A stretch of DNA of 64,000 nucleotides, from the UHGV virus genome UHGV-0180032; one strand, 5' to 3'. Each line of letters opens with the position of its first letter. Within the stretch, counting starts at the first letter, position 1. The DNA comes from a virus. The position numbers and the translations under genes are program-made. Below, piece after piece: positions 4,151-43,034 of the stretch. The notes beneath the pieces were generated by a model, which was given only the letters and a program-made list of their open reading frames with translations, was not told the DNA's origin and did no database searches.

Positions 4151-4714
4151 GTGGCCACATCTTACGTACCTGATTTGAGTCTGACCTCAGCAGAGCTAGT
4201 GGTCGCTTTAATCAATCATGATAACGGGTTACAGCTTACACTAAACGAAATCCGTATTAGCGGAACTGTAACAAACCCATCCCCAACAACTTCGCGACGT
4301 AACACTATCACCGAAATCAGTAAAATCAGAAAACCGGATGGTGCGACTGTTGTGGTTTACTACGACAGACTCGATGCCGATGAGGTATTAACGTCCGAAC
4401 CTATTTTGATTTCGTTAGACGGTACCGAAGCGAACATTCGTGATGTTCTTAGTGTTGTAAATGAATACTGCGGTACGAACTTACAACCTGAGGACTTACG
4501 TGCCTCAGATATTACTTCAGGTAATGATCCTATTGCTATTAACGTTGCTGACGATTCTCCTGCCTGGATGAATGCGTTTATGGTGACGTTGTTTGATAAA
4601 ACCGAACGTGCGTTAGCGAACGAAGAAGATGAAATCTTCTGCATCGGTGACGATAGCGTTCTTACATTCGAGGTTACAGATGGCGACAGCACTGAAGAAG
4701 ACGAGACTCCATGA
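4151..4714 (+). CDS. hypothetical protein, member of an intragenomic paralog family (YYDRL...NLQPEDL motif)
   Basis: Track ORF, GTG start after ggaggg SD; clear similarity to 14372..14884 product. Confidence 0.55.
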   Translation: MATSYVPDLSLTSAELVVALINHDNGLQLTLNEIRISGTVTNPSPTTSRRNTITEISKIRKPDGATVVVYYDRLDADEVLTSEPILISLDGTEANIRDVLSVVNEYCGTNLQPEDLRASDITSGNDPIAINVADDSPAWMNAFMVTLFDKTERALANEEDEIFCIGDDSVLTFEVTDGDSTEEDETP

Positions 4715-5141
4715 GCTTGAAAGCTACGCAGGCACACCCCAAGGCGGGGTACTGCTGTATAGCAAAGACAATAAAGAATATAAAATTGACGTTGATAAGT
4801 TAGCCCCGGTTGCGACAGTCACCACGGTTAACGGTTCGAATAATGCCGCCACGATGGATTTCAATACCAGCACTGACATTATTCTGGTGTTAAACGATCC
4901 TAACACTACAGTGACGTTCGCAGCCCTTACCAACGTTGCGGAAAATACCCGTTTCGAAGTAATGCTAACGATTAAGCAAGGAACAGGGGCGAATAAAGTA
5001 ACTTGGCCTGAAAACGTTAAGTGGCCTCACGGTGCACAACCGGTTTTATCCTACGCGGCAAATGCGGAAGACACTCTGTCGCTTTATACCCTTGATGGGG
5101 GTGCCACCTGGAAAGGTTCTCTTCTTGCAGCGGGTTACTAA
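4680..5141 (+). CDS. small protein homologous to the N-terminal module of the long tail fibre
   Basis: Track ORF 4629..5141 trimmed to ATG 4680 (gagg SD); N-terminus MATALKKTRLHELESYAGTPQGGVLLYSKDNKEYK aligns with N-terminus of 8225..12850 product. Confidence 0.55.
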   Translation: MATALKKTRLHELESYAGTPQGGVLLYSKDNKEYKIDVDKLAPVATVTTVNGSNNAATMDFNTSTDIILVLNDPNTTVTFAALTNVAENTRFEVMLTIKQGTGANKVTWPENVKWPHGAQPVLSYAANAEDTLSLYTLDGGATWKGSLLAAGY

Positions 5142-5312
5142 ATGAGAAAACATTTTCAGCGTCACGCGATTAGCTACGCGTTATCGTTAGCTTACGGACA
5201 CCAATCCTTCGTTACCCGGAATACGGGAACGACTCACGACGCGCACAACGAACACTATATTCAAAACGAAGAAGGTGTTCTGTAGAATAACCGTCATTTC
5301 ATTGCTGACACT

Positions 5313-8147
5313 ATGGCGGAATACCAACCGAACGGGGATGCGACGACCGAGGGTCAGTCGTTACACGTTATCGGTTACTGCCACATGTATATCGCAACGA
5401 AAGACGAAAGATGGTTAGATGCGGCGAAACACGCCTGGGATGCGTACAATACGTACTTCTACGCCGGGCAGCCTATTCCAACCACACCCCAGCGTCGTAT
5501 TTGTAACTGGTTGGTAAACGGGAAAGAACCGGTATTAGCACATTACCCAATAAACCCTACGGAACCTACCCAAGGTGGGTATAAAAGCGTCCCTGTAAGG
5601 TTTACAAACGGACAGTGTAAAATACCGCATGGTGCACCGTTCTGGGGAGAGTATTTGGATACCTTTACGTTTGCGCATCGTGGTCACCCTGCCTGGGAAG
5701 CCATTAACGCAGACGTACAGATTATCAAGGAAGACAAAGAAGGGTCAATTAATTGGGAAGATGTTTTAACTCACGTTATTACCAATCCTGATAAACCCTA
5801 CGAGGCCATAGCCTGGGTCGATTGGCCTACGTTGTTAAACAACGCTACAGGGTACACCCCGCTTTGGGGTGGTAGCGCAACAAAAGGCCCTAAATACGAC
5901 GCTGACTGGATAATTGCCTGGACAGGTAACAAAATCCAGGATAGTGAGATTATTGAGACAGGATTAGCAGACGCTGATAAAGGTACCGTACAGTTAAAAG
6001 ACACGCAGTTAAACGGTGTCTATTTGATTAACTACGCGGTAAAACTGCCTGTCGAACACGGGGGTTACGAGTTTAAACGTAACGAACCGTGGCACAACCG
6101 TCCGGTCCACACACCGTTCTTAGGGACGAAAAACCAATACGGCAACGCTGCTGATGCTGAACTGTGGTTTATTGACGCCTGTTATTTGCTGTGGCGAATC
6201 ACGGGTGAAGAGAAATACAAACAAGCATTAGACTGTACTTTCTACACAGCACACGAGTACACGTATATTGATGCAGTAGATAAATTCTTCCGTCGTTCTA
6301 CCGCTGCGGAAACACCGTTTACGGATGGTATTTCGTACGACTTCAATTACCCAGACACCGTAAGTGCTACCTACGGCCGTGATGAGAATGGGGATATTAC
6401 CATCCATGTGCCTGAAGCGGCACAACACTTTATGGAGCAGAAAGCGGTTCGATTCAGGATTAACAAAGACTCCAAACTACGTGTCACGTACGGCGGGGTT
6501 TGTAAGAACGGTGATCCTGTCTACTGCAAAGCAATGGTAAACATTAACCCTGCGAAAGGTGATACCGAGGAAGTAAACTGGTACGGTTTAACCTTACCTC
6601 GGTCTACGGTAAATGCCGTTAAGCAGTACGATGTTGACTTAGGCCAACTTGCTCGTATTACCACCCCAGAAGGGGAAGATTACCTGATAGCTGATGACCG
6701 CGCGTGTTCGGACTATGGTGGTTGTACGTGGGAAGAACGTTTTGAGGACAGCATTTACGACGGTCGCGCGGGTACCGTTATAGAAGCTGAATTTCCTGAT
6801 GACAGTGCCGGGTTTATTATCGGGTTCTGGTTAACCGCTGAAGAGAAGGTAAAACCGGTTTCTATTGTCTACCGTGCGGACGCGGATTTTAACCTGCGTT
6901 TAGCTGACAGTGATAACTGGCGTTGGTGGTGGATGTTACCCAACACAAACAACGAATGGCGTCAGGTAACGTTAAATCCGGATGATGCTACACTTTCCGG
7001 TTATCAGCCAGACCACACAGACGCTGACCCTAAACCGGCAGCACCGAATTTCGATAAGGTGGATCAGGTCACGATTCTCCCTGACTCTACGGTTGACCAT
7101 GCGCACTTTGCCTACTATTGCGTTAACAATGTTCCACCGCTCTTTAATAAAGACGACGGTTATATTCTCACCTTCCGTATTGGGTTACGCGGTGGTGGAG
7201 AGTATGATGCGAAGGTCGGCGACTGTACGATCAAAGATTACCGATTAGATTCGTTAGCGTATTGTCCGGGTACGATACCGTTCTCCAACAACTATTCAGA
7301 AGGTTCAGAACAGTTAGGTGCCTGGCACGGGATGCCTTATCCGGGTTATCAGTATCCGTTTATGTACACTATCCACAAAGACGACCGGTATAAGCTGTGG
7401 TTAGATAACCAGATTCAGTTCATGTACGACTCGCAGTTGGCTTACCAACGGCAGCTCGGTGAATTAGGGCCTGGTTGTGCTGCGTATATTTGGAACCGTT
7501 GGGACAACTACACCTACGGAGAAGCGGATACCTGGACAACGTTCCATTGGAGCGACGACCATCCGTGGCCAGGGTACCAACCGCGCGCGTTTCATGCGGC
7601 GTGTCGGTGCTGGTACGAACTGAAACTGCGAGGTAAAGAGGTTCCTGAGGCGTTAACAAACTATATTGAAAACTGGGTGAATTGGCTAGGTGGGTTTGTG
7701 GATCGGTTTAACGGACACACCCCTAACGAGTTCCCTACAGCACCGAATAAACCCGTTTGGGTGGAAGATGACTTCAACGCACATATGTGTGCGTTGTGGT
7801 TAGCAGGGTGTTGTTGGGCGTTACTCGCCGGTGCAACGAATCCGAACTACGAAAAAGTGGTTAATGCGGCAATTAAGGAGTTAGGTGAAGGGTTTACGAT
7901 TACCTCAATTCCGAATAAGCCGATTAACGGGGCGTGGTCTCCAGCCGCTCGAGAGTCTTCCGATAACGGTATGGCTTTTGGGTTCTACAGTGGGGAAGCG
8001 TTCCGTGCGTTAGGTCTCTACGTTACTTACAAAACCTACGGGGCCAACGCTAATATTTATCGTGACTTAGCGATTAGTGACCACAGTCAAGCGGTCTTAG
8101 ACGTTACGTTAACGATAGAAGACGATGCATTAAAACCAGAGCAATAA
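5313..8147 (+). CDS. large protein (944 aa), possibly tail-associated; function unknown
   Basis: Long uninterrupted ORF; Trp/aromatic-rich C-terminal half; sits between fibre N-module ORF and long tail fibre gene. Confidence 0.65.
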   Translation: MAEYQPNGDATTEGQSLHVIGYCHMYIATKDERWLDAAKHAWDAYNTYFYAGQPIPTTPQRRICNWLVNGKEPVLAHYPINPTEPTQGGYKSVPVRFTNGQCKIPHGAPFWGEYLDTFTFAHRGHPAWEAINADVQIIKEDKEGSINWEDVLTHVITNPDKPYEAIAWVDWPTLLNNATGYTPLWGGSATKGPKYDADWIIAWTGNKIQDSEIIETGLADADKGTVQLKDTQLNGVYLINYAVKLPVEHGGYEFKRNEPWHNRPVHTPFLGTKNQYGNAADAELWFIDACYLLWRITGEEKYKQALDCTFYTAHEYTYIDAVDKFFRRSTAAETPFTDGISYDFNYPDTVSATYGRDENGDITIHVPEAAQHFMEQKAVRFRINKDSKLRVTYGGVCKNGDPVYCKAMVNINPAKGDTEEVNWYGLTLPRSTVNAVKQYDVDLGQLARITTPEGEDYLIADDRACSDYGGCTWEERFEDSIYDGRAGTVIEAEFPDDSAGFIIGFWLTAEEKVKPVSIVYRADADFNLRLADSDNWRWWWMLPNTNNEWRQVTLNPDDATLSGYQPDHTDADPKPAAPNFDKVDQVTILPDSTVDHAHFAYYCVNNVPPLFNKDDGYILTFRIGLRGGGEYDAKVGDCTIKDYRLDSLAYCPGTIPFSNNYSEGSEQLGAWHGMPYPGYQYPFMYTIHKDDRYKLWLDNQIQFMYDSQLAYQRQLGELGPGCAAYIWNRWDNYTYGEADTWTTFHWSDDHPWPGYQPRAFHAACRCWYELKLRGKEVPEALTNYIENWVNWLGGFVDRFNGHTPNEFPTAPNKPVWVEDDFNAHMCALWLAGCCWALLAGATNPNYEKVVNAAIKELGEGFTITSIPNKPINGAWSPAARESSDNGMAFGFYSGEAFRALGLYVTYKTYGANANIYRDLAISDHSQAVLDVTLTIEDDALKPEQ

Positions 8148-8224: not shown

Positions 8225-11200
8225 ATGGCAAAAGCGGTAAAGAAAATACGATTACATAATCTTAGACCATATACCGGTGATATCGGTGAAGGCGTTTTAC
8301 TTTTCTCCAAGGATGAGAAAGATTATAAGTTACCAGTCCGTGAGATCATTGCGGATATTGACACCGTACGTAATGCGGTGGCTGAAGCACAAACAGCAGC
8401 AACACAATCACAAGAAGCTGCAACGCAGGCTACACAAGCAAAGAATTTAGCAGAAACCGCAAAACAACAAACTGACACCGTTGCGGCGACGGTTGCTCAA
8501 CAAGCGCAAACTGTAACCGAAAAAGCAACTGAAGTCGGTACAAAACACACTGAAGTGTTAGCCGCGAAAACGGCGGTAGATACCCAGGTTGTGTCCGTTA
8601 ATGAGAAAGCGCAAGCGGTAGCGGCAAGTGAGGCCAACGTCACACTAGCAGAGACTGCCGTTACGAAGAAAGCAGAAGCCGTCGCCACACAAGCCGGTCA
8701 AGTCGAACAGTCGCTTACAGCAGTTAACGAAGCTGTCGCGTCGGTAGAGTCGTCAAAAGCCTCTGTAGAAGCTACAGCAACGCAAGTTACCACAGACAAA
8801 GAAACCGCAGAGAATGCGGCAACGCGTTCTGAGGCAGCCGCTAAGCGCGCAGAAGAAATCGCTGCAAAAGGTAACGTTGATGCATCAACGACCAGTAAAG
8901 GTATCGTTAAGCTTAATAATACCCTAAGCAGTGACTCTGTTACTGAAGCGGCTACGCCGTCAACGGTTAAGCAGTTAAATGAAGATTTGCAGTTAAAAGC
9001 AAACCGTCACAACCCAACATTTACTGGTACGGTAAAAGCACCAACTCCTGCTTCGGATTCTAACGACACGAGTGTCTCAACGACTGCATGGGTACGACAA
9101 GCGATTGCTGAATTAGTGGATTCTTCACCCGAGACGTTAGATACGTTATCAGAAATTGCAGCTGCGTTAGGGAACGATCCTAACTTTGCGACAACGATGA
9201 CGAACCAACTCGCGGGTAAGCAGCCGTTAAGTCCGTTACTGACAGCGATTGCCGCAGTCACCACCGCTGCAAACAAACTCCCTTACTTTACCGGTAGTAA
9301 TCAGGTAGGGTTAGCGGATTTCACCTCGACTGCGCGTGATTTGTTAGCGAAAGGGTCGACGACCGATATCATTAACTTCCTGGGTTTGAAAACCACCGTC
9401 GATAAAGCTGCGGGTGCTATGCAACGCAGTTCTAACGGTGCCGATATTCCCGACAAAGTCACCTTCGCGAAGAACATCGGGTTGTCAGCAGAGACGTACC
9501 TGAAGTACAACGGCGATATGGCGATAGACGCGGACCTTAATACCTTCGGTCCAGTCGAAGCGTCTATGGGTATTTGGTCGAAAGGCACATCTACAAACGC
9601 AACGATTGCAAAGAACTTCCCGGAAGAAAACGCAGTCGGTTATTTAGAGGTTTTTAGAGCAGGTAACTACGGCGGGAGTCAGCGTTTCACTGTACGTAAC
9701 GGTAACGTCTATACACGTCATCTTACTGCTTCATGGAATGGGACAAACGGCCCTTGGTCAGAATGGCGTAATGTTGCCGGTTCCGCCAGAACGTTGAACG
9801 AACAAAATAATCTGAATGACTTAGGCGGTGAACCCGCACTGGGTGTTTGGAGAAACAGTACAAGTACGTTAGCAACAGCTGCGCTGAATTATCCTGAGGA
9901 AGGTTCCTTTGCCCAGGGTGTATTAGAGGTCCTCAAAGGTGGTAACTACAGTTACACACAACGCTACACTACCCGTAGAGGTAATGTGTACGTTCGTTGT
10001 CTACAGGCCACGTGGGACGCTTCTAATCCGCAGTGGGAAGAATGGCGCTGTGTCGGTCATCAATCTGTCAGCGCATATTTCGAAGGCGATCTCGACACGT
10101 TAACTTCGCCTAACCGTTATAGCATTACCGACAAAGCGACTAACGTTCCTTTAATCGACGGCACTAAAATTATCGGTATCTTGGATGTCAGTCGTCGTTT
10201 TGATAACGTCAGTGTCGAACAAAAATTCACCTCGTTTGGTTCCGGTAGTAAAACCACAGGTCGCGTTTTCACTCGTGTATTCTCCGGCCAATCAAACGGT
10301 AAATGGAGTGAGTGGCGAGAGGTTTTCACCTCGTATTCACTTCCGTTAGTTTTAGGCATTGGTGGTGAAGCTGCTAAGGTTGACCCGTTAGACTGGCAAA
10401 CTTACGACTTCGTTCCTGGTCAGATGCTAACGACACCGTTGAACACCATGAAAAACATTCCTGCGGGAATGGATTGGGGTGTGATTGACGGTAACTTAGT
10501 TAACATCCTTGTCGGGCCGTCTGACGACACTGGTACCGGTCGGAGTATGTTGGTTTGGCGTAGCACGGTGTCTACTGCCAACTATCGCTTCTTTGCGGTA
10601 CGTGTCGCTGGTGAGAAGGGTAGCCGTACGATTACGCCACGTCAGATGCCTGTGTTGAACGCAGCGCACACCTGGGCAGAGAAACAGACCTTTGCAAAAG
10701 GGTTAGCAGGTGAGTTAACCGGCAATGCTTCAACCGCCACTAAGCTCCAGACTGCGCGTAGAATTGGCGGGGTCGCTTTCGACGGCAGCGGTGACATTAA
10801 CCTCCCCGGTGTTAACCAACAGGGTAATCAAAACACCACGGGTAACGCCGCGACAGCCACTAAACTTCAAACCGCCAGAAATATTAACGGTGTGAGGTTC
10901 GATGGCTCTGGAGACATCAATATCAACACCTTGGTAGGTCGTGGACGGGTTACCGCTCTGACCGGGTCGAACAAGGGTACACCTGGTATCCAGATGTACG
11001 AAGTTTACAATAATGGTTATCCAACCGCTTATGGTAACTTGCTGCACTTAGGTGGTGCTAGTGCCGTAGGCGAAGGTGAACTGTTAATCGGTTGGTCTGG
11101 CACCAGCGGTGCGCACGCGCCAGTTTTTATTCGTAGTCGCCGCGATACGGCTGACGCGCCGTGGTCAGACTGGGCACAAGTTTATACTGCCCGTGACAGT

Positions 11201-12850
11201 ATTCCTGGCGTAAATGCCACCGGTAATCAAGATACGACCGGAAACGCCGCTACCGCAACCAAATTGAAAACCGCTCGCAGAATCGGTGGTGTTACCTTTG
11301 ACGGTACTGGGGATATCAATTTACCGGGCGTAAACCAGCAAGGCAACCAGAACACGACAGGTAATGCTGCAACAGCGACTAAACTTCAGACTGCCCGAAG
11401 TATCGGTGGTGTGGCTTTTGATGGTACGAAAGACATCAGTTTACCTGGGGTAAACCAAACGGGGAATCAGTCAACTACGGGGAACGCTGCTACTGCAACG
11501 AAGTTGCAGACAGCGCGTACCATTAACGGTATCGAATTTGACGGTACTAAAAATATTGAACTGACCCCAAGAGCCATAGGCACGATTAACTCAACAACCA
11601 TGTCTTTTAATGGTGGTGCCGGATGGTTCAAGCTGGCAACTGTAACCATGCCACAAGCCAGTTCCGTGGTTTACATAAGCATGATTGGTGGTGCAGGGTA
11701 TAACGTTGGCTCCCCGCAACAAGCTGGTATCTCTGAGCTGGTCCTGCGTGCAGGAAATGGGAACCCAAAAGGTATTACTGGTGCTTTATGGCGACGGACC
11801 TCTGTTGCTTTTACTAATTTTGCATGGGTGAATACATCTGGTGACACCTATGACATTTATGTAGAAATAGGTAATTACGCAACAGGTGTTAATATCCAAT
11901 GGGATTATACAAGTGACGCCACAGTACAAATCTATACATCGCCAACTTATACATCAGATAAACCAGCTGGTCTGACTGATGGAACGGTATATGTCGTTTA
12001 CAGTTCACACATTAAACCTACTGCGAATGATGTTGGGGCGTTGCCATTATCCGGCGGCCAATTGAATGGAGCTTTGGGTATTGGAACCGCCAATGCTTTA
12101 GGTGGGAACTCCATAGTTTTAGGGGATAATGACACCGGCCTTAAGCAGAACGGGGATGGCGTTCTAGATGTTTACGCCAATAATGCTCACGTTTTACGCT
12201 TTACGAGTGGGGCTGTTCAAAGCAATAAACCTCTCAACGTTACTGGGGATATAAGAACCAATACTTGGGTTTATGCAAATAGATATTCTATTAACAGCAA
12301 CTCAGGTTCTTGGATTAGCATGAGAGACCATAACGTTATTTTTGGTCTTAATGCGGTAGGAACTAGTTCTGCTCAGGCTTTGTTAAGACAAGACCATGCT
12401 GATAGGAAATATTTTGTTGGTGGTTTAGGTAACAGTCAATTCGGCTTTTACATGATAAACAACTCACGTACTGATAATGGCACCGATGCTAATGCTTATT
12501 TGCAAAATGACGGTACTTGGGTTTGTGGTGGGAACGGTAACTTTAACGACGTTTATATACGTTCAGACGCCCGGCTGAAAAGTAATTTCTCTCCAATAAC
12601 TAATGCATTGGAGAAGGTAAAGAAATTGTCAGGTTTAATATACGACAAAAAGGAGAACTTTAAATCCACTAATGTTCATCGTGAGGCTGGCGTTGTAGCA
12701 CAGACCTTACAAAAAGTGTTACCTGAAGCAGTTTCTACTTATAAAGACGCTAATGGTGAGGACGTTTTGACGGTCTCTAATTCTGCTCAAATAGCTTTAC
12801 TTATTGAGGCAATAAAGGAGTTGGCGGAGATAATTGAGACCAAGTTATAA
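8225..12850 (+). CDS. long tail fibre protein with C-terminal intramolecular-chaperone (S74-like) domain
   Basis: 1541 aa; Ala/Thr/Gln-rich N-terminal region; five copies of a ~40-aa repeat; C-terminal SDARLKSNF...LIEAIKEL motif typical of auto-cleaving fibre chaperone domains. Confidence 0.9.
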   Translation: MAKAVKKIRLHNLRPYTGDIGEGVLLFSKDEKDYKLPVREIIADIDTVRNAVAEAQTAATQSQEAATQATQAKNLAETAKQQTDTVAATVAQQAQTVTEKATEVGTKHTEVLAAKTAVDTQVVSVNEKAQAVAASEANVTLAETAVTKKAEAVATQAGQVEQSLTAVNEAVASVESSKASVEATATQVTTDKETAENAATRSEAAAKRAEEIAAKGNVDASTTSKGIVKLNNTLSSDSVTEAATPSTVKQLNEDLQLKANRHNPTFTGTVKAPTPASDSNDTSVSTTAWVRQAIAELVDSSPETLDTLSEIAAALGNDPNFATTMTNQLAGKQPLSPLLTAIAAVTTAANKLPYFTGSNQVGLADFTSTARDLLAKGSTTDIINFLGLKTTVDKAAGAMQRSSNGADIPDKVTFAKNIGLSAETYLKYNGDMAIDADLNTFGPVEASMGIWSKGTSTNATIAKNFPEENAVGYLEVFRAGNYGGSQRFTVRNGNVYTRHLTASWNGTNGPWSEWRNVAGSARTLNEQNNLNDLGGEPALGVWRNSTSTLATAALNYPEEGSFAQGVLEVLKGGNYSYTQRYTTRRGNVYVRCLQATWDASNPQWEEWRCVGHQSVSAYFEGDLDTLTSPNRYSITDKATNVPLIDGTKIIGILDVSRRFDNVSVEQKFTSFGSGSKTTGRVFTRVFSGQSNGKWSEWREVFTSYSLPLVLGIGGEAAKVDPLDWQTYDFVPGQMLTTPLNTMKNIPAGMDWGVIDGNLVNILVGPSDDTGTGRSMLVWRSTVSTANYRFFAVRVAGEKGSRTITPRQMPVLNAAHTWAEKQTFAKGLAGELTGNASTATKLQTARRIGGVAFDGSGDINLPGVNQQGNQNTTGNAATATKLQTARNINGVRFDGSGDININTLVGRGRVTALTGSNKGTPGIQMYEVYNNGYPTAYGNLLHLGGASAVGEGELLIGWSGTSGAHAPVFIRSRRDTADAPWSDWAQVYTARDSIPGVNATGNQDTTGNAATATKLKTARRIGGVTFDGTGDINLPGVNQQGNQNTTGNAATATKLQTARSIGGVAFDGTKDISLPGVNQTGNQSTTGNAATATKLQTARTINGIEFDGTKNIELTPRAIGTINSTTMSFNGGAGWFKLATVTMPQASSVVYISMIGGAGYNVGSPQQAGISELVLRAGNGNPKGITGALWRRTSVAFTNFAWVNTSGDTYDIYVEIGNYATGVNIQWDYTSDATVQIYTSPTYTSDKPAGLTDGTVYVVYSSHIKPTANDVGALPLSGGQLNGALGIGTANALGGNSIVLGDNDTGLKQNGDGVLDVYANNAHVLRFTSGAVQSNKPLNVTGDIRTNTWVYANRYSINSNSGSWISMRDHNVIFGLNAVGTSSAQALLRQDHADRKYFVGGLGNSQFGFYMINNSRTDNGTDANAYLQNDGTWVCGGNGNFNDVYIRSDARLKSNFSPITNALEKVKKLSGLIYDKKENFKSTNVHREAGVVAQTLQKVLPEAVSTYKDANGEDVLTVSNSAQIALLIEAIKELAEIIETKL
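10722..11575 (+). repeat. phage tail-fibre repeats (about five copies) inside the fibre CDS
   Basis: Repeated unit GNQ(N/D)TTGNAATATKLQTAR-I-G(V)-FDG-GDI-LPGVNQ seen directly in the translation. Confidence 0.6.
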
Positions 12851-12897: not shown

Positions 12898-13689
12898 GTG
12901 GTTATTTTGTCTGTATCAGCGACTCCCGGATGGATTGGTTCTTCAGCAAAAGCTGAAGCTGGTGACGGTTGGATGTCTGGCGCGATGCGCACACTTGGTG
13001 TGCCGGTTCCAGGCTGGATGTCGCAATTGGCGGGAAAATCAAAAGAGGCTCAGTATTCGATCGGGGCTAATCACAATTACAATAAAGATACGCTTATTAA
13101 CTATTTACGTTCCATAGGCTCTACTGCTGTCGTTGTGACCATTACAGGGGATTTAGTGTCTTATAGTAGCGGGGTTCCTTGTTTAGAGTTCCCTAGCAAT
13201 CTTCCAAATTCGTATATTACCCTCATCATCAATCCTGGGGTTACAGTATACGGCAGAGGAGGCAACGGCGGTTCTAACTCACCAGGCGGTGCAGGTGGAA
13301 CCGCAATACAGAACGGAATAGGAAACAGACTGCGTATAACCAACCGTGGCGCTATTGCCGGAGGCGGTGGCGGCGGTGGCGGCGGTAACAGGGGTAGACT
13401 AGTATTTGGTGGTGGCGGTGGTCGCCCATTCGGTGCTGGTGGGTCTTCCTCTCATATGAGTTCCGGTGCGGCTGCTGGTACTATTTCCGCTCCTGGTAGA
13501 GGATCTGTTGGTGAGGGGTCTCTTAGTGCATATACAGGCGGTTCGGGTGGTAATGTCGGTGCTGGTGGAGGAAGATGTAATACTCATGGTAACGGTACAG
13601 AATATAACGGCGGAGCAGCTGGTGCAGCTGTTACTGGTAATGCGCCAAGATGGGACGCAGTAGGTGCAATATACGGTTCACGTGTTTAA
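12898..13689 (+). CDS. gp38-like tail-fibre tip adhesin (T2-type, glycine-rich)
   Basis: N-terminal PGWIGSSAKAEAGDGWMS...PGWMSQLAG; poly-Gly blocks (GGGGGGGGG, FGGGGGRPFGAGGSSSHMSSG); C-terminal TGNAPRWDAVGAIYGSRV; matches my recollection of T2/T6 gp38. Confidence 0.75.
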   Translation: MVILSVSATPGWIGSSAKAEAGDGWMSGAMRTLGVPVPGWMSQLAGKSKEAQYSIGANHNYNKDTLINYLRSIGSTAVVVTITGDLVSYSSGVPCLEFPSNLPNSYITLIINPGVTVYGRGGNGGSNSPGGAGGTAIQNGIGNRLRITNRGAIAGGGGGGGGGNRGRLVFGGGGGRPFGAGGSSSHMSSGAAAGTISAPGRGSVGEGSLSAYTGGSGGNVGAGGGRCNTHGNGTEYNGGAAGAAVTGNAPRWDAVGAIYGSRV

Positions 13690-13705
13690 TTAAAAAAGAG
13701 GGTAG

Positions 13706-14218
13706 ATGGGGGTAGCGTCAGGATGGGTCGGTTCTTCGGCCAAGAGTGAAACGGGCGAACAATGGATGAGCGCTGCTGGTAGTAAATTAGGATTGGGTAG
13801 ACCTTTTATGATGAGCCAAATGGTAGGCAGGTCTGTAGGTTGCAAAATAGCAACAGCTTATTATAAAACGTCAAATACTGATAAGGTAGAGAACTGGGGT
13901 GCTGTCGGAGCCGATTGGCCGTTGGTAGATAAGAACAAAGGAACGCTTTCTGGTGCCTCGAACTGTGGCTTAGGACGTTTAGTGGGGATCGTACTTACGC
14001 AAGCTCACTACGTTGCCGGTGTTCCGCCTACTGCCGCTTTATATATTTCTGGCGGACGGGCGAGTAACATTACGGTGACGGTTGGTGGTGTTTCGCAAGC
14101 ATTTACTTACAATAGTGTTACTAACGGTTTTCACTATTATTGGCAAGGAACACCGAGTTCGGCCTTTATAGCGGCAATGAAGAAGACGGGTGTTACACAA
14201 GATTTGAAAATTAGCTAA
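13706..14218 (+). CDS. second gp38-like protein: conserved N-terminal module with a different, non-glycine-rich C-terminal domain
   Basis: N-terminus GWVGSSAKSETGEQWMS aligns with 12898 product; remainder unrelated. Confidence 0.6.
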   Translation: MGVASGWVGSSAKSETGEQWMSAAGSKLGLGRPFMMSQMVGRSVGCKIATAYYKTSNTDKVENWGAVGADWPLVDKNKGTLSGASNCGLGRLVGIVLTQAHYVAGVPPTAALYISGGRASNITVTVGGVSQAFTYNSVTNGFHYYWQGTPSSAFIAAMKKTGVTQDLKIS

Positions 14219-14303
14219 CTAATTGGGGTAAAACGATAACCAAAATTAGTAAAATAAGAATTCGTAATTCAATAATTTTTTATAGAAAGGTTGATTTATT
14301 AGA

Positions 14304-14354
14304 ATCGGGGGGGGGGTGAAATGTTTTTAGCCAACATTTTATGTCTCCCCAATC
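14304..14354 (+). promoter_or_regulatory. G-tract hairpin element, copy 2
   Basis: atc-G10-...-CCCC-aatc with an internal sub-hairpin; just upstream of SD/GTG of 14372 gene. Confidence 0.35.
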
Positions 14355-14371
14355 ATAGGAGGTAACCATAC

Positions 14372-14884
14372 GTGGAACAATTCACGCCTGATTTGTCCTT
14401 AACTTCACTTAACATGGTTATTTCACTGGTTAACCATGACCTCCAGCTCGACTTGCAAGAGAACGAGGTTGAAGTCAGCGACGTAAAGACCAGTGACGAA
14501 ATGGATCGTGACACCACTGCTGTTGTAAAGATAAAACGTCCCGGTAACAGAACGTTACAAATCTATTACAACCGTTTAACCGCAGAACGTTGGTTAAACC
14601 AGCAACCTATTCTGGTACAAGTAGCTGGAGAGGGGTTTAACACACACGATTTAATCGACGGGATTAACGCAGCCTGTGGCAGTAACCTGCAACCTGAAGA
14701 TCTTCAGGACGATTCATTTACAGTAGGAAAAGACGCTGTAACGTTACAGGTATCACCTAACTCCCTAAGTTATAAAGGCCAATTCTCTGTTTTGGTTTTT
14801 GGTAACGGTGAAGAAGCCGCAGTAACAAAAGATGACAACCTAATCGTTACCGCAGATAATCGCGTCTTAACCTTTGGTGGTTAA
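14372..14884 (+). CDS. hypothetical protein, paralog of 4151..4714 product
   Basis: Track ORF, GTG start after aggagg SD; shared PDLSLTS...LVNHD...YY(D/N)RL...CG(T/S)NLQPEDL. Confidence 0.55.
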   Translation: MEQFTPDLSLTSLNMVISLVNHDLQLDLQENEVEVSDVKTSDEMDRDTTAVVKIKRPGNRTLQIYYNRLTAERWLNQQPILVQVAGEGFNTHDLIDGINAACGSNLQPEDLQDDSFTVGKDAVTLQVSPNSLSYKGQFSVLVFGNGEEAAVTKDDNLIVTADNRVLTFGG

Positions 14885-14981
14885 TAGTGGCTGACACGAG
14901 CTACCATCACTTTCAGAAGACATCACTATTAAGCGTCTTACAGGGACAACGCTTTCTCAGAACGGAATGAAATAAATATTA

Positions 14982-15029
14982 GGTAGTAGGGGCTAAGCCC
15001 CTACTACCTTTCTTTTTTTTTATTTTTTC
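14982..15029 (+). terminator. intrinsic terminator
   Basis: Stem ggtagtagggg/cccctactacc, loop ctaag, followed by long T-run. Confidence 0.65.
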
Positions 15030-15074
15030 TCAGATATATATTACCTAGAGGAGAGCGAAATTTACATTCGCTCT
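15028..15074 (+). promoter_or_regulatory. conserved promoter-like box plus stem-loop, copy A
   Basis: tctcagatatatattacctagaggagag followed by hairpin agagcg/cgctct; near-identical box at 18331 and 54431. Confidence 0.45.
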
Positions 15075-15182
15075 ATTAGTTATAGCCGAAAGGAGGATTA
15101 GTTCTATCACCCGCATTATCTGTTCTGGTGAATTGGGCGAAGATAAATTAGTTGAAGATTACATTAAGAAGGAAGGGCAATT

Positions 15183-15626: not shown

Positions 15627-15636
15627 GGAGTATAAA

Positions 15637-16736: not shown

Positions 16737-16738
16737 AA

Positions 16739-17020: not shown

Positions 17021-17025
17021 TTAGC

Positions 17026-21718: not shown

Positions 21719-22567
21719 ATGTCTCTTACGTCAAAACAGAAACTGCTAAAACTCATCAACACTGAAAACAATATTAGTCCACCGTTGACTTTCAGTGATG
21801 TTGAAATCGGGGAACCTACCGGTACTGGGGTTGATACCCAGGTGGTTCTGACCTCTAAACTTAAAGGCGATGAGTCTACTACTTTAACCGTGACTTACCA
21901 CCGTCGTAATTTACCTGACTACCTAACCGGTGAGTTGGTATTCGGTAACGACAGTGTGGTAACCGCATCCGATTTGCTTAATGCGATTAACGCAAAATAC
22001 AACCTAAATATTTTACCCTCGGATATCGTTGACGCAAAAGTTGAAGGTGAAACCCATCAGCTTACGGCTAACGAGAAATCTTACGAGTGGTGCGGTGTAG
22101 TAACGCTTACGCTGCGTGATCCTATTGACCTGACCGAACTGTTACCGGTTACTCAATTAGAAAATCTGGTAGAGTATCCGTCCACGAAGAAAGGTAACGC
22201 GGCGGTTTATTCTCACCCGATTGATTTCACCGCAGAAAAAGATTACCTTGACCCGATTACTATCAACGACACTGTAGACTTAGTAGAATTAGCTACTAAA
22301 CTGGATGGTGTGGTTGACGAGAAATGGGTAAGCGTACCTAAGAACGCTGCTTACAACCTGTACGGTGCGAAAGTTATTTACGATGGCCCAACCTCAGGCT
22401 ACGAAGGCGCAAATACGAAATTCACTCGTGTGTTGGTGCTAACACTCAGCCCGCTGTGTTCTAACCTGACCGGTAACCTGTTAATTCACTTTAACGGTAC
22501 CGATCGTCCGAAGTCGAAGATTGAATTAGCACAGACTAATCCGGTCTTACCGGGATTCTTAGATTAA
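21719..22567 (+). CDS. hypothetical protein (282 aa), distant member of the YYDRL-type paralog family
   Basis: Track ORF; contains TYHRRNL...LNAINAKY...LPSD similar to family motif. Confidence 0.55.
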   Translation: MSLTSKQKLLKLINTENNISPPLTFSDVEIGEPTGTGVDTQVVLTSKLKGDESTTLTVTYHRRNLPDYLTGELVFGNDSVVTASDLLNAINAKYNLNILPSDIVDAKVEGETHQLTANEKSYEWCGVVTLTLRDPIDLTELLPVTQLENLVEYPSTKKGNAAVYSHPIDFTAEKDYLDPITINDTVDLVELATKLDGVVDEKWVSVPKNAAYNLYGAKVIYDGPTSGYEGANTKFTRVLVLTLSPLCSNLTGNLLIHFNGTDRPKSKIELAQTNPVLPGFLD

Positions 22568-22580: not shown

Positions 22581-23060
22581 ATGGCCAATCAAGAAACTAT
22601 CTTCGACCTTATTAAAAAGGCTAACCCGGACGCTGAGTTCGACACCACCAAAGTCACGCTGGGTGATCCGGTTGTGGCCACCGGTACTTACAATACCGAA
22701 ATTACGGTTGCGTCAATTAAGAATCTCGGTTACACTAACGAACAAACGTTCCAGTATAACCGCATTGACGCAGGTTTATATTTCCTGAACGTATTACCGA
22801 AGCTGTTGGTAGAATCTGCAACGACTACCGCTGACTTACTGCCCGTCATTAACGAGCAGTACAGCCTAGCCCTTACAGAAGACGATGTGTGGGTAGAACA
22901 GGTTGGTGAGTTACCGTTAGACGGTAGCGCAATCGAACACGGTATTTTCTTCCGTCCTGAGTGTCTGACTTGGGTTGGCGGTTTTACAGTGCGCGTTGCG
23001 CGTAAACCGGCTGAAGCCACACCGCCAAAGGCGGCGTCTCGCGCTAAAAAGAAAAAATAA
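22581..23060 (+). CDS. hypothetical protein (159 aa), distant paralog-family member with Lys/Ala-rich tail
   Basis: Track ORF; SD aagagga; FQYNRID...LPVINEQY motif. Confidence 0.55.
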   Translation: MANQETIFDLIKKANPDAEFDTTKVTLGDPVVATGTYNTEITVASIKNLGYTNEQTFQYNRIDAGLYFLNVLPKLLVESATTTADLLPVINEQYSLALTEDDVWVEQVGELPLDGSAIEHGIFFRPECLTWVGGFTVRVARKPAEATPPKAASRAKKKK

Positions 23061-25589: not shown

Positions 25590-25859
25590 AAACTCACCCT
25601 TATTAAAATTAAGAAAAAATAATTTTTTCAGGTTAGCGCTTACTGCCAACCGTCATATCTATATTTTAGGAAATGTCTAAAATAACATTCTTATGCAATC
25701 CACCCCTACCACTAACGAGGTAAAAAAAGATGGCTAAAGCCTTCAAACAACAGCTCAATTCGTCTGGCTTCTCAAGACCTGATCGGTGCCAAAGCTTACG
25801 AACAAGCCGGTAGCCTCGATCTGGAAAACTCCGTCATCGTAACCAAACTGAACGAAGAA

Positions 25860-26096
25860 ATGGTTACTAAAGGTTATGTCGATGACGCATTCGCCGAAAG
25901 CGAACTGTCCATTGAGAAATCCGAAGGCGACAGCGGTGCTAAAGTCTACACTGTCAAAGTAAGCGAAGGCCACATCAAATTCCTGGCTGGTACTATTGCC
26001 GTCTTCACTTATTCCAACCCAGCTCCTGAGAAGGTAGCACTGAGCGGTCTGGAAGGTGAACTTGATGGCTTCACTGCACCGGGTGTCGGTGGCTAA
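25860..26096 (+). CDS. hypothetical protein (78 aa), C-terminal GELDGFTA motif; possibly truncated or frameshifted
   Basis: Track ORF; shares C-terminal motif with 26161 product; upstream frame stays open without a start and an SD-preceded ATG at 25730 lies in another frame. Confidence 0.4.
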   Translation: MVTKGYVDDAFAESELSIEKSEGDSGAKVYTVKVSEGHIKFLAGTIAVFTYSNPAPEKVALSGLEGELDGFTAPGVGG

Positions 26097-26160: not shown

Positions 26161-26691
26161 ATGGCCGCTACTAACCAGATGATGTTGGTCGCGCTTTATA
26201 ATGCTGCTAACGCTGAGCTACCGCATCAGATTACAGATAAAGAAGTGTCCTTTGGTCTCCCTACTGCGCTGGAAGGCGAAAGTAAGAATACCAAAGTTAC
26301 CATGACTGCACTACCGGGTTCTGAGAATTTCAAAGGCGAAATCGAACTGCATTACGATCGTCTGGAACCAGGTGTTGTAGGACGGATTGAACTAACTGAC
26401 GATCTGTCTCGCTGGGTTCAAGAAAATGAACTCCGCGCTTGGTTACAATATTACATCAACAAAGTAAAACCTGACGACGCTATCGCACCAGGCGACGTTG
26501 TGTACAACACCGAAGACCAGAAAGACGAACATGAAAACGTCACTCTGCGTACCGTGACGTGCACCGTTACTGAAAAGAACCTCCGTTATAAACCGGGCGT
26601 AATGGCAACCTTCGTAATTACACCGAAGGTTGTCGATAATCGTATTGACCTGGCCACCACCAACGGTGAGTTGGACGGTTTTACTGCTTAA
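26161..26691 (+). CDS. hypothetical protein (176 aa), paralog-family member
   Basis: Track ORF; contains HYDRL motif and C-terminal NGELDGFTA. Confidence 0.55.
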   Translation: MAATNQMMLVALYNAANAELPHQITDKEVSFGLPTALEGESKNTKVTMTALPGSENFKGEIELHYDRLEPGVVGRIELTDDLSRWVQENELRAWLQYYINKVKPDDAIAPGDVVYNTEDQKDEHENVTLRTVTCTVTEKNLRYKPGVMATFVITPKVVDNRIDLATTNGELDGFTA

Positions 26692-27435: not shown

Positions 27436-27977
27436 TCTTCTTCTCCAACCATACCTAATTCTTGCAGCAAGCCAAAATCAATCAACTGGAAGGTTTCAGA
27501 GAGATCGTTTGACCACACCACGTTTGCAATGTCGCGTTCTTCATCCGTTAACTGCGGTAACACACTTTCGTTGAACGTCTGATGCTCTACGTAATACGCA
27601 TCGTAGATAGACGTGGAACGCAAACAACGGATGGGTAGACGCGGGAAAGACACCGCTAACGCAGCAATAGACGCGCTGCTCGGATTCTCCGCTGAATAAC
27701 GAAGCAGTTCGATTTTGTGGCGTGGGTAGTCCAGTACACGTTGTTCGAAACCCGGATTACGTTTTTCGATTTCCACAACGGACTCATGGCCTGTTTCTGT
27801 GCAGTAAACAGGAATCATCACGTTTAACCCGTACTTAATCAGCAGGGGTTTAATCTCATCTGTAAAGTCTTCACCAGGGATAATGGCGTGGACGTTATAG
27901 AGTTTGTGTTTACGCAGAAAACGCTCAACCAGGTGGAGTTTACGCTTCGTAAAATTGTGGATCAGAATTGATTTCAT
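27411..27977 (-). CDS. hypothetical protein
   Basis: Track ORF 27411..28001 trimmed to second ATG (27977) with gagg SD; overlaps end of radical-SAM gene. Confidence 0.5.
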   Translation of the reverse strand: MKSILIHNFTKRKLHLVERFLRKHKLYNVHAIIPGEDFTDEIKPLLIKYGLNVMIPVYCTETGHESVVEIEKRNPGFEQRVLDYPRHKIELLRYSAENPSSASIAALAVSFPRLPIRCLRSTSIYDAYYVEHQTFNESVLPQLTDEERDIANVVWSNDLSETFQLIDFGLLQELGMVGEEECLLLTKA

Positions 27978-29274
27978 TATTTGCCTCAGTAGGTTGTGCA
28001 TTTAACGCACGTTTAGCTTGCTCACGCTCACGCGTACATTTCGGACAGTAACAAACAGACGAATCGTGCAGTGACGACGCGTGGACGGTACCTGTACGTT
28101 GACGCCAGTATTCTGCTGCCATCAGTTTGGCGGTCGTCCAACCACATTGACGACGTTCAGCGTGGTACGCCTTACGGTCTTCCAGTGTCCCTTCACCGTT
28201 TTCGTAGGATGCGGCCGCACAGCTCCCACAACCGTGTTTCATCGGACAGCCTAAGCACGTTTCAGGATAGTTGGTGTATTGCGTCTGAATCTCTTCCAGC
28301 AGTTTCCCACCGTCTAAGCTAACAAACTCACGACCGACTAACTCAAACACCGCAGAACGTGACGTTACCGTTGACATAAACCGGTTACAACCGTACACCT
28401 TACGGTCAAAACCTAAGCAGGTCATAAACGTCAACGTCCCACAGAACGGACGTAAACGTTCAGGGTTATAACGGTGCGTGTCGTCGTACAGCAGTTTATC
28501 GCGCCAATCCGGGTCCCAAATCTGACGGAAATCCAGACCTTCAGGAATGATGTGGGACAACACGTTACGTGGGTTGGTGTGCAGTCCTTTCTCAATCCAA
28601 TAATCCATCACCTCGATCATCTGCAACGCAATATCCGTCGCCATGCTTCGTGGAAGAATATCTTCGTACGTCACGTTACCTGAAATCGTACCGCCACCGG
28701 CAATATCGATTAACGACTTCATACTCGCCGCGTAATGCGGTAAGGTTTCGGACGTAAAGGTTGCCTTAATACCCAGTTCGGCGATACCCACTTCTTTTAA
28801 GTAGTTATAGCCACGAACAGCGGCTTCGTAAGAACCCTGACGCGACGTGGTAAAGATACGATAGCGGTCATGGACTTCTGGCAACCCGTCGATAGAAACA
28901 CCGATGGAGAGTTTGTCTTTCCAACGCTCAACAATCTCACGGTTTAACGGACGGTCTAACAACGTCCCGTTCGTGGAGATACTGAACATATACGGGCGGT
29001 TATGCTCCTTACACAGCTGTTCTGCGGTTTCAAACGCCGCTAACAGCAGTTTCGGTTGCATAAAAGGTTCGCCGCCGATGATATCAATAATGACGTCGAT
29101 GTTCGGAATATCTTTGTCACGCTCAAAACAGGCGTGTAAGAAATCCACGATATCCGCCGCTTTGTTATTACGCGGATACTTACGTTCGTAACAATACTCA
29201 CAGTCTAAGTTACAAGACAGGTTCGTTACCACCTGGTAAGTACGTTGTGAACGTGGTGCTTCATTATTGCTCAT
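27940..29274 (-). CDS. radical SAM enzyme with C-terminal SPASM-type Cys cluster (peptide/protein maturase-like)
   Basis: CNLDCEYC (CxxxCxxC), IIGGEPFM SAM-binding motif, C-terminal CLGCPMKHGCGSCAA plus further Cys; 444 aa. Confidence 0.85.
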   Translation of the reverse strand: MSNNEAPRSQRTYQVVTNLSCNLDCEYCYERKYPRNNKAADIVDFLHACFERDKDIPNIDVIIDIIGGEPFMQPKLLLAAFETAEQLCKEHNRPYMFSISTNGTLLDRPLNREIVERWKDKLSIGVSIDGLPEVHDRYRIFTTSRQGSYEAAVRGYNYLKEVGIAELGIKATFTSETLPHYAASMKSLIDIAGGGTISGNVTYEDILPRSMATDIALQMIEVMDYWIEKGLHTNPRNVLSHIIPEGLDFRQIWDPDWRDKLLYDDTHRYNPERLRPFCGTLTFMTCLGFDRKVYGCNRFMSTVTSRSAVFELVGREFVSLDGGKLLEEIQTQYTNYPETCLGCPMKHGCGSCAAASYENGEGTLEDRKAYHAERRQCGWTTAKLMAAEYWRQRTGTVHASSLHDSSVCYCPKCTREREQAKRALNAQPTEANNEINSDPQFYEA

Positions 29275-30181
29275 CTTTGCTTATCCTTTTACGCTCTGCA
29301 TAAATCACGCGTTTAATGTACTCGTAAGCACCTACCCCGATAGAGCAAGCAAGCTGATTGCACCCACCCTTTAAGATAGCCGGTGCATTCTGAAGCTGAT
29401 GTTCTGTTCCATCTGCGTTCAAATACAACTCTTCGCTACAGACATTACACTCGTTTTCGAAAATCTTGCTGACAGACACACCGCACGATTCTCCAGTTTG
29501 GACGTTCAGCCGTTCCATATTCTCCTGAATCTTTAAATAACCATAAACGAAGTTCATGATGTGATCGGGAGACAACGGTTTTGGCATTTGGGCATCAAAC
29601 ATCAGAGAGAACGCACGGGGACGATAGTGGTACATTGCACGATGCAGTTCCACAATATCTTCATACCAGCGCTTATCGGCTAACTGGTCACGCGTAATCA
29701 CAGCCCAGGTTTGGAAGTTATCGAGTTCGTATAACGCTTCCAGTGCTTCGTGGCTATCCTCTTCAATAAAGCGTATAAAAGGACGCTCAGAACGCTTGTA
29801 GCCATCAATTGATACAAACACATGCTCAAAGTCTTTTAGCAGCGTAAGATGCGATTTACGCAGCTTTAATCCGTTGGTATACAAGTGATGCTCAAGATGC
29901 GGATGAGACACTTTCAATTCGTTAACGAAATCCTCAATCTTACGTTGGACGAGTAGCGGTTCTCCACCGGTCCAATGTATTTCCTTAATAGCTGGATTCT
30001 CTTGTAGTAATTCCAGGATACGTTCGCGTTGAAAAGCACGAGACGAATCTTCACGATTCATGTAGTAGGCTCCACCGCAGAAACTACAGTCTAGGTTACA
30101 CTTAGACGTCGTAACTACGGACAATATAGTGGGTTTATCGTACAACTTCGTCGAGATCCTGGATTCCACATTGTCTATCAT
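29264..30181 (-). CDS. radical SAM enzyme (second, shorter) with C-terminal auxiliary Cys motifs
   Basis: CNLDCSFC, HWTGGEPLL, C-terminal CNVCSEE...GGCNQLACS; 305 aa; stop overlaps start of 27940..29274. Confidence 0.8.
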   Translation of the reverse strand: MIDNVESRISTKLYDKPTILSVVTTSKCNLDCSFCGGAYYMNREDSSRAFQRERILELLQENPAIKEIHWTGGEPLLVQRKIEDFVNELKVSHPHLEHHLYTNGLKLRKSHLTLLKDFEHVFVSIDGYKRSERPFIRFIEEDSHEALEALYELDNFQTWAVITRDQLADKRWYEDIVELHRAMYHYRPRAFSLMFDAQMPKPLSPDHIMNFVYGYLKIQENMERLNVQTGESCGVSVSKIFENECNVCSEELYLNADGTEHQLQNAPAILKGGCNQLACSIGVGAYEYIKRVIYAERKRISKDEQ

Positions 30182-31455: not shown

Positions 31456-31851
31456 CTATCGTCCTGTACACGACGAGCAGCCACCCGTACAGCTACTGGA
31501 GCACGATGCTGTACAGCCGCCCGTACAAGTGCCCGAACACGCATTAGCGCACCCACCCGAACAACTCCCCGAACATCCTGAACAACTACTGGAACACCCT
31601 GACGTGCAGTTTGCAGAGCATGAAGAACCACAACCACCAGACGCGTTCCCTGTACAACCACCAGAGCAACTCGAGCAGGTAAAGGAACACGTGCCCGCAC
31701 AATCATAATGCGCACGATTCCGACCACCGAACAGGTCCGCGTTATTCGTGGCCTTATTGCGGATGTAGTTCTGTACACCTGTGGTGTTTTTCAGCGCGAT
31801 ACTATCGACGTTATTAAGACGTCTTACTAATTCAGCTAATCCGACTGCCAT
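31456..31851 (-). CDS. Cys-rich precursor-like protein 2 (131 aa)
   Basis: SD ggggga; leader-like MAVGLAELVRRLNNVD...; long core with Cys every 3-4 residues ending CTGR; alternative-frame ORFs over the same DNA judged spurious. Confidence 0.65.
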   Translation of the reverse strand: MAVGLAELVRRLNNVDSIALKNTTGVQNYIRNKATNNADLFGGRNRAHYDCAGTCSFTCSSCSGGCTGNASGGCGSSCSANCTSGCSSSCSGCSGSCSGGCANACSGTCTGGCTASCSSSCTGGCSSCTGR

Positions 31852-31860
31852 TTCTTCCCC

Positions 31861-32253
31861 CTATCGTCCAGAGCATCCGCCGGAGCAAGCACCCGAACAG
31901 TTATGCGAACAACGCCCAGTACAACTTCCGGTACAGGTACTTGTACAACTGCTAGAACAGGCCCCCGAGCAACCGGAGCATCCTGAACAGTTGCCCCCAC
32001 AGGACGAAGAACAGCTACCCACGCACGACGCTGAACAGTTTCCTGAACAGCTCGAGCAACCGTGAGTACATCCGTTAGAACATGTCCACGAACACGCTCC
32101 CCCGCAGTCTAAACGCGAAGGCGTCCAACCGGAAAACGAATCTGCTGCGTTATGCGCTTTCGATGCGACCTGCGCATTGACACGAGGGCCGGTAGCGACT
32201 GTATTTTCTACCGTTGTTAACCGATCGCGCATTTGTTTAACACTAATCGCCAT
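31861..32253 (-). CDS. Cys-rich precursor-like protein 3 (130 aa)
   Basis: SD aaggaag; leader-like MAISVKQMRDRLTTVEN...; Cys-periodic core ending CSGR. Confidence 0.65.
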   Translation of the reverse strand: MAISVKQMRDRLTTVENTVATGPRVNAQVASKAHNAADSFSGWTPSRLDCGGACSWTCSNGCTHGCSSCSGNCSASCVGSCSSSCGGNCSGCSGCSGACSSSCTSTCTGSCTGRCSHNCSGACSGGCSGR

Positions 32254-38745: not shown

Positions 38746-38839
38746 CGTAAAGACTCCTACTTTTAAATAAAATGGATACCCCTCCCCATTACAGGGAGGG
38801 GTTACCTACGGACACACAACTGCCCGCAGGCAGCCTGTC

Positions 38840-43024: not shown

Positions 43025-43034
43025 AAAATTCTCC

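Follow-up and report, generated by a model that had tools for sequence, protein, structure and literature searches.

A dispersed family of DUF7941 proteins beside the receptor-binding genes of a chimallivirus-like jumbo phage

Introduction

What are the small, mutually similar proteins that recur beside fibre, adhesin and lysis genes in a 64,000-nucleotide stretch of viral DNA (UHGV virus genome UHGV-0180032; the whole analysed stretch is called the window below)? A preliminary description singled out six loci, which we label A (4151..4714), B (14372..14884), C (21719..22567), D (22581..23060), E (26161..26691) and F (25860..26096). It took A and B for clear paralogs and C, D and E for weaker relatives, and suggested that repeated acquisition or duplication of one small domain next to receptor-binding genes had given rise to fibre chaperones or decoration proteins. 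We find that the loci fall within DUF7941, a family recognized as a functional entity only in 2026 and reported to be exclusive to Chimalliviridae. Where this family sits in the virion is disputed: genetics and proteomics of Salmonella phage SPN3US place it in the head, and the phiKZ structure and a model for Escherichia phage Goslar place it in filaments at the baseplate.

Results

The paralogs are members of DUF7941

A and B align over their full length with 63 of 170 residues identical (37%; BLASTP E-value 4e-39), and share all four motifs from which their paralogy had been proposed: PDLSLTS, L(I/V)NHD, YY(D/N)RL and CG(T/S)NLQPEDL. In Pfam, all five intact proteins pass the curated gathering cut-off of 27 bits for PF25613 (DUF7941), with 73.7 bits for A, 58.8 for B, 180.2 for C, 98.1 for D and 37.0 for E, and A–E have no other Pfam match. 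In PHROGs, the family loci fall in phrog_1037, phrog_2935, phrog_3589 and phrog_4862, annotated "virion structural protein".

Single-sequence phmmer searches link only A to B, B to C (1e-5) and E to F (5e-5), leaving D and E unconnected to the rest of A–D, so profiles are needed, as the preliminary description had anticipated. A profile of 72 family sequences that left out C and E, searched against the 229 window open reading frames of at least 50 aa, recovered A, B, D, C (4.9e-33) and E (1.7e-25) and no further member beyond A–E. A profile of E orthologues aligns with one of A/B-type sequences at an E-value of 7.8e-5 (hhalign), and a jackhmmer search seeded with E picks up D-type members and multi-module proteins. 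The weaker relatives are thus linked both by the Pfam threshold and by the family profile. Their proposed core, (Y/H)(Y/H)(D/N)R(L/I), stands as Y-x-R across the 72 sequences (R68 invariant, Y66 nearly so), but C, which reads YHRR, departs from the literal pattern. F matches phrog_4862 and the C-terminus of SPN3US gp160 only, and is without the N-terminal module.

We conclude with high confidence that A–E and the F locus represent a set of structural paralogs, of the DUF7941 family, in a chimallivirus-like jumbo phage. The paralog family is already known, and the loci described here are further members. DUF7941 is the same family as SPN3US paralog family B, which comprises gp83, gp138-154, gp160 and gp237 with gp122 as a candidate (PMC5694885, PMC10052503), and as the Goslar gp22/gp23 family, whose ten proteins are gp22, gp23, gp31, gp33, gp34, gp86, gp91-93 and gp161 (bioRxiv 10.64898/2026.04.21.720040); phiKZ gp127 is also included.

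The window is syntenic with SPN3US and belongs to an uncultured clade

Synteny ties the window to SPN3US (genus Seoulvirus, Chimalliviridae), with gene order conserved across DUF488/gp121/gp122/gp123/gp124 and from gp156 through gp161; closest proteins and synteny both point to Seoulvirus. A is the syntenic orthologue of gp122 (45% identical), to which B is 32% identical. C is 46% identical to gp138, D 36% identical to the N-terminal module of gp141, its nearest match, and E 37% identical to gp160, with F reaching 49% over the C-terminal half of gp160. In Goslar, E matches gp23 (3.5e-11), C and D match gp33, gp34 and gp22, and the neighbourhood of gp22, gp23 and a GH108-like lysin mirrors that of C, D and the window endolysin.

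Probable membership of this phage in the chimalliviruses rests on such orthology and synteny. A complete relative encodes a split RNA polymerase beta fragment; chimallin and PhuZ were not located in that genome, where Pfam gave RNA polymerase fragments only. The clade is uncultured and appears as 220–227-kb contigs in metagenomes and in assemblies of Salmonella, Shigella and E. coli isolates, and the phage collection that we searched gave only partial DNA matches to it. One member, circular and 221,873 bp long, is annotated as a plasmid of urinary E. coli 98232 (NZ_CP173450.1; p98232 below) and is 92.5% identical over window positions 13700-17700. Such occurrences suggest that a phiKZ-like jumbo phage persists here in a carrier or pseudolysogenic state.

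All clade members examined have both A and B, and the complete relative has eight DUF7941 genes. We considered and rejected the idea that B is a recent tandem duplicate, since B is 37% identical to A and 32-37% identical to gp122 of other genera; we propose instead that B is an old second copy of A. Copy number varies among relatives through duplication, deletion and cassette exchange, in line with the earlier suggestion of repeated acquisition or duplication.

The N-terminal module has a baseplate-protein fold and is followed by a short tail

An AlphaFold2 model of B (pLDDT 87.6, pTM 0.77) gave one significant Foldseek match in the PDB, the N-terminal domain of phiKZ gp127 (9xqd_0; E-value 1.6e-9, TM 0.62/0.69), and gp127 was also the only match for the AlphaFold model of E. 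B and E therefore do not have distinct known folds: the N-terminal module has the fold of phiKZ gp127 residues 1-150. C finds the same PDB entry by phmmer (9xqd_0, PHIKZ127; 6.1e-5), and its Pfam alignment spans profile positions 5-275 of 276.

Downstream of this module, distant single-module members carry a tail about 10 residues further on, typically (I/V)T.T.L(D/N)G(L/F), that is conserved in dozens of proteins. It reads TNGELDGFTA in E and TNPVLPGFLD (LPGF) in C, occurs in SPN3US gp145, gp148, gp151 and gp160, and is present in canonical form in F. A and B end instead in a subtype-specific variant, D(D/N)xVLTF, which departs from the canonical L-D/N-G-F, and the Lys-rich C-terminus of D is without the motif. 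The family as a whole comprises 1293 clusters (E-value at most 1e-3), and many of its proteins are chains of 2-5 tandem modules, up to 2908 aa long. Where one module of such a chain gives way to the next, the junction contains a tail with G(F/L) immediately ahead of the second module (19 of 53 junctions by the strict pattern). Tails so placed fit a beads-on-a-string design, and we infer that single-module proteins would make the same tail contact in trans.

The paralogs adjoin fibre, adhesin and lysis genes

The neighbours named in the preliminary description are as it said. A (4151..4714, + strand; 187 aa, tail DDSVLTF) is followed by a small gp123-like fibre protein of 153 aa (4680..5141, +), whose ATG at 4680 overlaps A by 35 nt and is the start that PGAP assigns in E. 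coli p98232. The next gene encodes a gp124-like tail-associated protein (5142..8147, +; phrog_2871, tail protein). It has an in-frame TAG at 5283..5285 (codon 48), with the listed reading frame restarting at 5313; the gene is intact at 1001 aa in the relative L007 and in E. coli p98232, and the amber codon is TCG in L007. Re-initiation after a nonsense mutation is one possible explanation, and a pseudogene is another.

Upstream of B lie a long tail fibre of 1541 aa (8225..12850, +), with an N-terminal anchor encoded at 8225..8345 and a C-terminal S74 intramolecular chaperone domain (Pfam Peptidase_S74), and two adhesin genes. The first encodes a Gp38-type tail-fibre adhesin (12898..13689, +; Pfam GP38 at 233 bits, plus Gp38_N), whose true start may be nearer 12973 and whose homologue is named "receptor-recognizing protein" by PGAP; the second, an adhesin-like protein (13706..14218, +), has the Gp38_N domain only (Pfam 70.6 bits). 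B itself (14372..14884, +; 170 aa) is a gp122-type protein with the gp127-like N-terminal module and the tail DNRVLTFGG, and starts with GTG, 7 nt downstream of an AGGAGGT Shine-Dalgarno site. Its cassette is closed by a strong terminator-like stem-loop (14981..15009, +; 13 pairs followed by a T-run).

Further along, C (21719..22567, +; 282 aa) is a full-length DUF7941 protein with N-terminal module, linker and a C-terminal domain ending LLIHFN, followed by its extra tail. D (22581..23060, +; 159 aa) consists of the N-terminal module only, and a GH108 endolysin gene lies downstream of it. E (26161..26691, +; 176 aa) is of the gp160/Goslar gp23 type. One small domain has been multiplied in this genome beside receptor-binding genes, as had been supposed.

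The window has only three G-runs of at least 9 bases, at 8168-8177, 14307-14316 and 26104-26112. Each forms the 5' arm of a AUCGGGGGG...CCCCCGAU hairpin, and the three hairpins precede the start codons of the long fibre, B and E, respectively, by about 50 nt. The hairpin upstream of B is kept in relatives, with a run 10-11 G long or interrupted. These hairpins may be intercistronic terminators, processing sites or regulatory elements.

F and the gene after B have been lost by deletion

F had been noted for sharing the C-terminal GELDGFTA with E. The shared peptide is real, but F is the 3' remnant of a broken gene and not a free-standing one. The pseudogene (25730..26096, +) derives from a 178-aa gp160-type DUF7941 gene, and what remains open is a 78-aa reading frame (25860..26096) ending GELDGFTAPGVGG. 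A 172-bp frameshifting deletion at about 25756 left the original ATG at 25730 and the first nine codons; in tblastn with the intact gene from the relative L011, the match over residues 67-178 is 89% identical, with residues 1-9 read in a different frame. Relatives have 2-3 intact tandem copies at the gp160-type position, the intact gene encoding 178 aa.

A second deletion removed the receptor-binding gene after B. About 564 bp are missing, and the remnant (14885..14975, +), delimited by blastn against L007, translation and alignment, keeps about 90 nt and no start codon; the intact protein has 206 aa in L007 and L008. E. coli p98232 has also lost the gene after B, and the different deletion junctions indicate that this loss is recurrent. 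Among the accessory virion genes, the window thus has two deletions (after B and in the first gp160-type gene) and one amber codon.

gp122-type genes precede receptor-binding proteins that share an N-terminal anchor

The small fibre at 4680 and the 1541-aa fibre start with the same motif, KK.RLH.L..Y.G....GVLL.SKD.K.YK, an instance of a common N-terminal anchor of about 40 residues, KK.R(L/I)HEL..(Y/F).G...(V/A)LL.SK.EK.YK; in the small fibre, the first ~40 residues carry it as KKTRLHELESYAG...GVLLYSKDNKEYK. In public phage genomes, the anchor occurs once per genome in the 24 records where it was detected, and it directly follows the gp122-type gene in every record with a gp122-type position listed. 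EC001 and pEa_SNUABM_29 have a diverged anchor at the same place. After the B orthologue, relatives encode a 706-aa SASA/DUF6645 esterase, a 206-aa protein or a 133-aa protein; their bodies are unrelated, and all are led by the anchor. In the complete relative, anchor-bearing proteins are confined to the region from A to B. The region of L007 that we retrieved has three anchor-bearing genes, with B the only gp122-type gene within the locus; the A orthologue probably lies just upstream. We dropped a strict 1:1 stoichiometry of adaptor and fibre, which L007 does not fit.

B itself is mosaic. Over residues 1-82, every pairwise comparison gives 83-100% identity; over residues 83-170, identity is 84-100% for pairs of one cassette type and only 52-71% between types, which indicates that the exchanged unit is the 3' half of B together with the receptor-binding gene. 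The conserved 5' half could be a mere recombination arm, which would explain the mosaicism within the gene. B is intact and under purifying selection (dN/dS 0.11-0.23), including in the two genomes that lack the downstream gene through different deletions, so its role is not limited to that one partner. We found no natural fusion of a gp122-type protein with the anchor in a search of the top 150 representatives.

Orthologues are found in virion preparations

Published proteomics bears on where these proteins would go. In SPN3US, gp138-154, gp160 and gp83 are as abundant in heads from a tail-tube amber mutant, purified on dual CsCl gradients, as in wild type (Table S2, PMC10052503), with head/wild-type peptide-spectrum match (PSM) ratios of 1.2-1.5 for gp138, gp141 and gp160 (PMC10052503). 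In the authors' scheme family B belongs to the head, and gp141 and gp160 bear the mark "head ejection?" (PMC5694885, PMC10052503). A different pattern is seen for gp122, with 7, 7 and 8 PSMs in tailed virions versus 0, 0 and 0 in tailless heads, for the tail-assigned gp123 (16, 16 and 23 versus 0), for gp124 (186, 185 and 159 versus 8, 9 and 3) and likewise for gp237 (Table S2, PMC10052503). The authors did not see gp122 in virions purified on a single gradient and gave it the label "non-virion" (PMC5694885, PMC10052503). Despite that label, the PSM pattern of gp122 is that of a low-copy tail component.

In Goslar, gp22 and gp23 are present at about 580 and about 2140 copies per virion, and purified gp22 forms filaments seen by negative-stain EM (bioRxiv 10.64898/2026.04.21.720040). 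AlphaFold 3 predicts that protomers associate head to tail, the linker of each docking onto its successor's N-terminal module, and the authors propose a filament "cloud" anchored at the peripheral baseplate (bioRxiv 10.64898/2026.04.21.720040). Their cryo-EM maps show no peripheral-baseplate density for DUF7941, and gp22 and gp23 are unmodelled; by the authors' account the preparation also captured free assemblies such as PhuZ filaments (bioRxiv 10.64898/2026.04.21.720040), so virion attachment of the bulk subunits remains putative. phiKZ gp127 caps the end of the gp139 band in the outer peripheral baseplate (PDB 9XQD; Nat Commun 2026, PMC13250141). Carrying these data over from orthologues, we propose with moderate confidence that A–E are virion-associated and chain head to tail.

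Discussion

The reading that we favour, and regard as probable when taken as a whole, is that these proteins are DUF7941 accessory virion proteins of two classes, with A and B as adaptors. Each would consist of an N-terminal module of about 140 residues with the gp127 fold, a short linker and a hydrophobic C-terminal tail, canonically L-(D/N)-G-(F/L). Following the published model, the linker and tail of one protomer would dock on the N-terminal module of the next, and head-to-tail chaining would build flexible filaments, anchored at the peripheral baseplate, that carry host-recognition domains. The first class, C, D, E and the dead F, would supply the bulk filament subunits, as orthologues of SPN3US gp138, gp141 and gp160 and Goslar gp23. 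A and B, as the gp122 subtype, would form the second class, present in few copies and dependent on the tail. Their N-terminal halves would join the DUF7941/baseplate network and their C-terminal halves would hold anchor-led receptor-binding proteins, and B would head an extra, exchangeable receptor-binding cassette, whose receptor-binding gene is deleted in the window. For the window phage, we infer both head-to-tail docking and the A/B adaptor role. The non-canonical tails of A and B and the missing motif of D count against this reading.

The first reading proposed for A–E, as non-virion assembly chaperones for the adjacent fibres and adhesins, is now highly improbable. The genes do adjoin fibre and adhesin genes, and the absence of SPN3US gp122 from the single-gradient sample, with its "non-virion" label, would agree with such a role. 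Against it, gp122 is present in all three tailed-virion replicates and absent from tailless heads, and orthologues of C, D and E types are among the most abundant proteins of SPN3US and Goslar virion fractions. Pfam finds no similarity of A–E to the Gp38, Tfa, gp57A or S74 chaperone families, the fibre has its own S74 chaperone and Gp38-type partners in neighbouring genes, and the fold is that of a baseplate structural protein; the chaperone suggestion is accordingly disfavoured. The alternative offered beside it, decoration proteins, survives in the loose sense of accessory virion structural proteins, but nothing resembling a Hoc, Soc or gpD fold was seen, since the models of B and E match gp127 only. 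It is harder to place the bulk members. That C, D and E are head components, whether internal, ejected or bound to the capsid as accessories, with only A and B linked to the tail, strikes us as unlikely, but the SPN3US head data do conflict with a purely baseplate-anchored filament: the ratios for gp138, gp141 and gp160 persist after two CsCl gradients, the SPN3US authors' head class and ejection marks point the same way, and the Goslar peripheral baseplate maps lack DUF7941 density. Set against these are the modelling of phiKZ gp127 in the baseplate, the fusion of some members to carbohydrate-binding, glycoside hydrolase or LRR domains that make sense only outside the capsid, and the absence of any family B protein among the SPN3US proteins listed as processed by the prohead protease. 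Because purified gp22 self-assembles, filaments could also co-sediment with heads, and since the Goslar preparation captured free assemblies, such co-sedimentation could reconcile the SPN3US and Goslar data.

Within the favoured reading, the proposal that A and B act as adaptors or sockets, with the C-terminal half recognizing the anchor and the N-terminal module joining the DUF7941 filament or peripheral baseplate, is a tentative one, and we put it clearly below an even chance. Phage fibre loci commonly exchange modules at conserved gene ends. A and B might be DUF7941 chain or baseplate subunits of the usual kind that do not specifically bind the receptor-binding proteins encoded next to them, the adjacency reflecting a shared late operon and the mosaicism of B a 5' half that serves as a recombination arm. 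We find this rather doubtful, although it accommodates such exchange, the retention of a constrained B in two genomes that lack the downstream gene, a pairing that is not strictly 1:1 and the missing Rosetta-stone fusion among the top 150 representatives. It does less well with the anchor, which, where detected, follows the gp122-type gene across genera, stays the same on three unrelated receptor-binding bodies after B and is found nowhere else in the complete relative; nor does it account for the tail-dependent, low-copy proteomic pattern that gp122 and gp123 share.

Among known systems, the likeness to SPN3US is one of direct orthology, conserved gene order and the same C-terminal TNGELDGF peptide. 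SPN3US differs in having about 21 family B members with a 17-gene array (gp138-154), of which the window has only C and D, and in having one gp122-type gene, where the window clade has two (A and B) and an extra long fibre/Gp38 module. With Goslar the window shares the Pfam family, a full-length protein (C, like gp22) and an N-terminal module with linker (E, like gp23). In Goslar gp86, gp92 and gp161, host-recognition domains are fused to the DUF7941 module; in the window, by contrast, receptor-binding proteins are separate, start with a common anchor and are encoded directly after gp122-type genes. Measurements of copy number and of filament formation come from Goslar only. phiKZ gp127 is the sole solved structure that matches the B and E models, and the sequence of C also resembles that of its C-terminal half, down to the closing LLIH(F/Y)N. 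Identity to gp127 is about 18%, and gp127 is full-length like C, whereas B and E are an N-terminal module plus tail.

In other large myoviruses, too, receptor-binding proteins are modular: a conserved anchor at the N-terminus is combined with C-terminal bodies that can be exchanged. The window clade resembles them in placing an N-terminus of about 40 residues on unrelated bodies (the small fibre, the 1541-aa fibre, the SASA esterase and the 206-aa and 133-aa proteins). It differs in the proposed docking partner, which would be the DUF7941 protein encoded just upstream and not a baseplate hub or another tailspike.

To what was known, the analysis adds direct orthology that cross-links SPN3US family B, DUF7941 and phiKZ gp127, and a family size that is very plastic (8 copies in the window clade, about 21 in SPN3US and about three in phiKZ). 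It also splits the tail-dependent gp122 subtype from the tail-independent bulk subunits, and describes the gp122/anchor cassette pattern; what is new is modest and, for the role of the cassettes, putative. If the model holds, host range in this uncultured clade of jumbo phages of enterobacteria would be rewired by swapping half of an adaptor gene together with a receptor-binding gene. The adaptor idea, if true, would give a rule for how receptor-binding proteins are mounted and exchanged, of use in host-range prediction and engineering; if it is false, the finding is the correct call of a known family.

Other features of the window and of SPN3US

In SPN3US (JN641803, 18519..28657), a three-gene unit occurs three times (gp145-147, gp148-150 and gp151-153), each with a DUF7941 module protein ending TNGELDGF, a protein of about 330 aa and one of about 300 aa; the window does not have this repeat. 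A second family of tail-protein paralogs is present in the window, where three giant proteins of 1728, 1394 and 1440 aa (33559..47357, - strand) and a 401-aa protein (32319..33524, -) have N-terminal PHROG families in common. These proteins correspond to SPN3US paralog family C (gp168-170, similar to phiKZ gp131). Within 27940..30181 (-) and 31456..32253 (-), two adjacent radical-SAM genes (Radical_SAM plus Fer4_12) lie near two reading frames of about 130 aa whose C-terminal halves are almost all Cys, Ser and Gly. This region resembles a peptide-modification (RiPP-like) locus within a jumbo phage.
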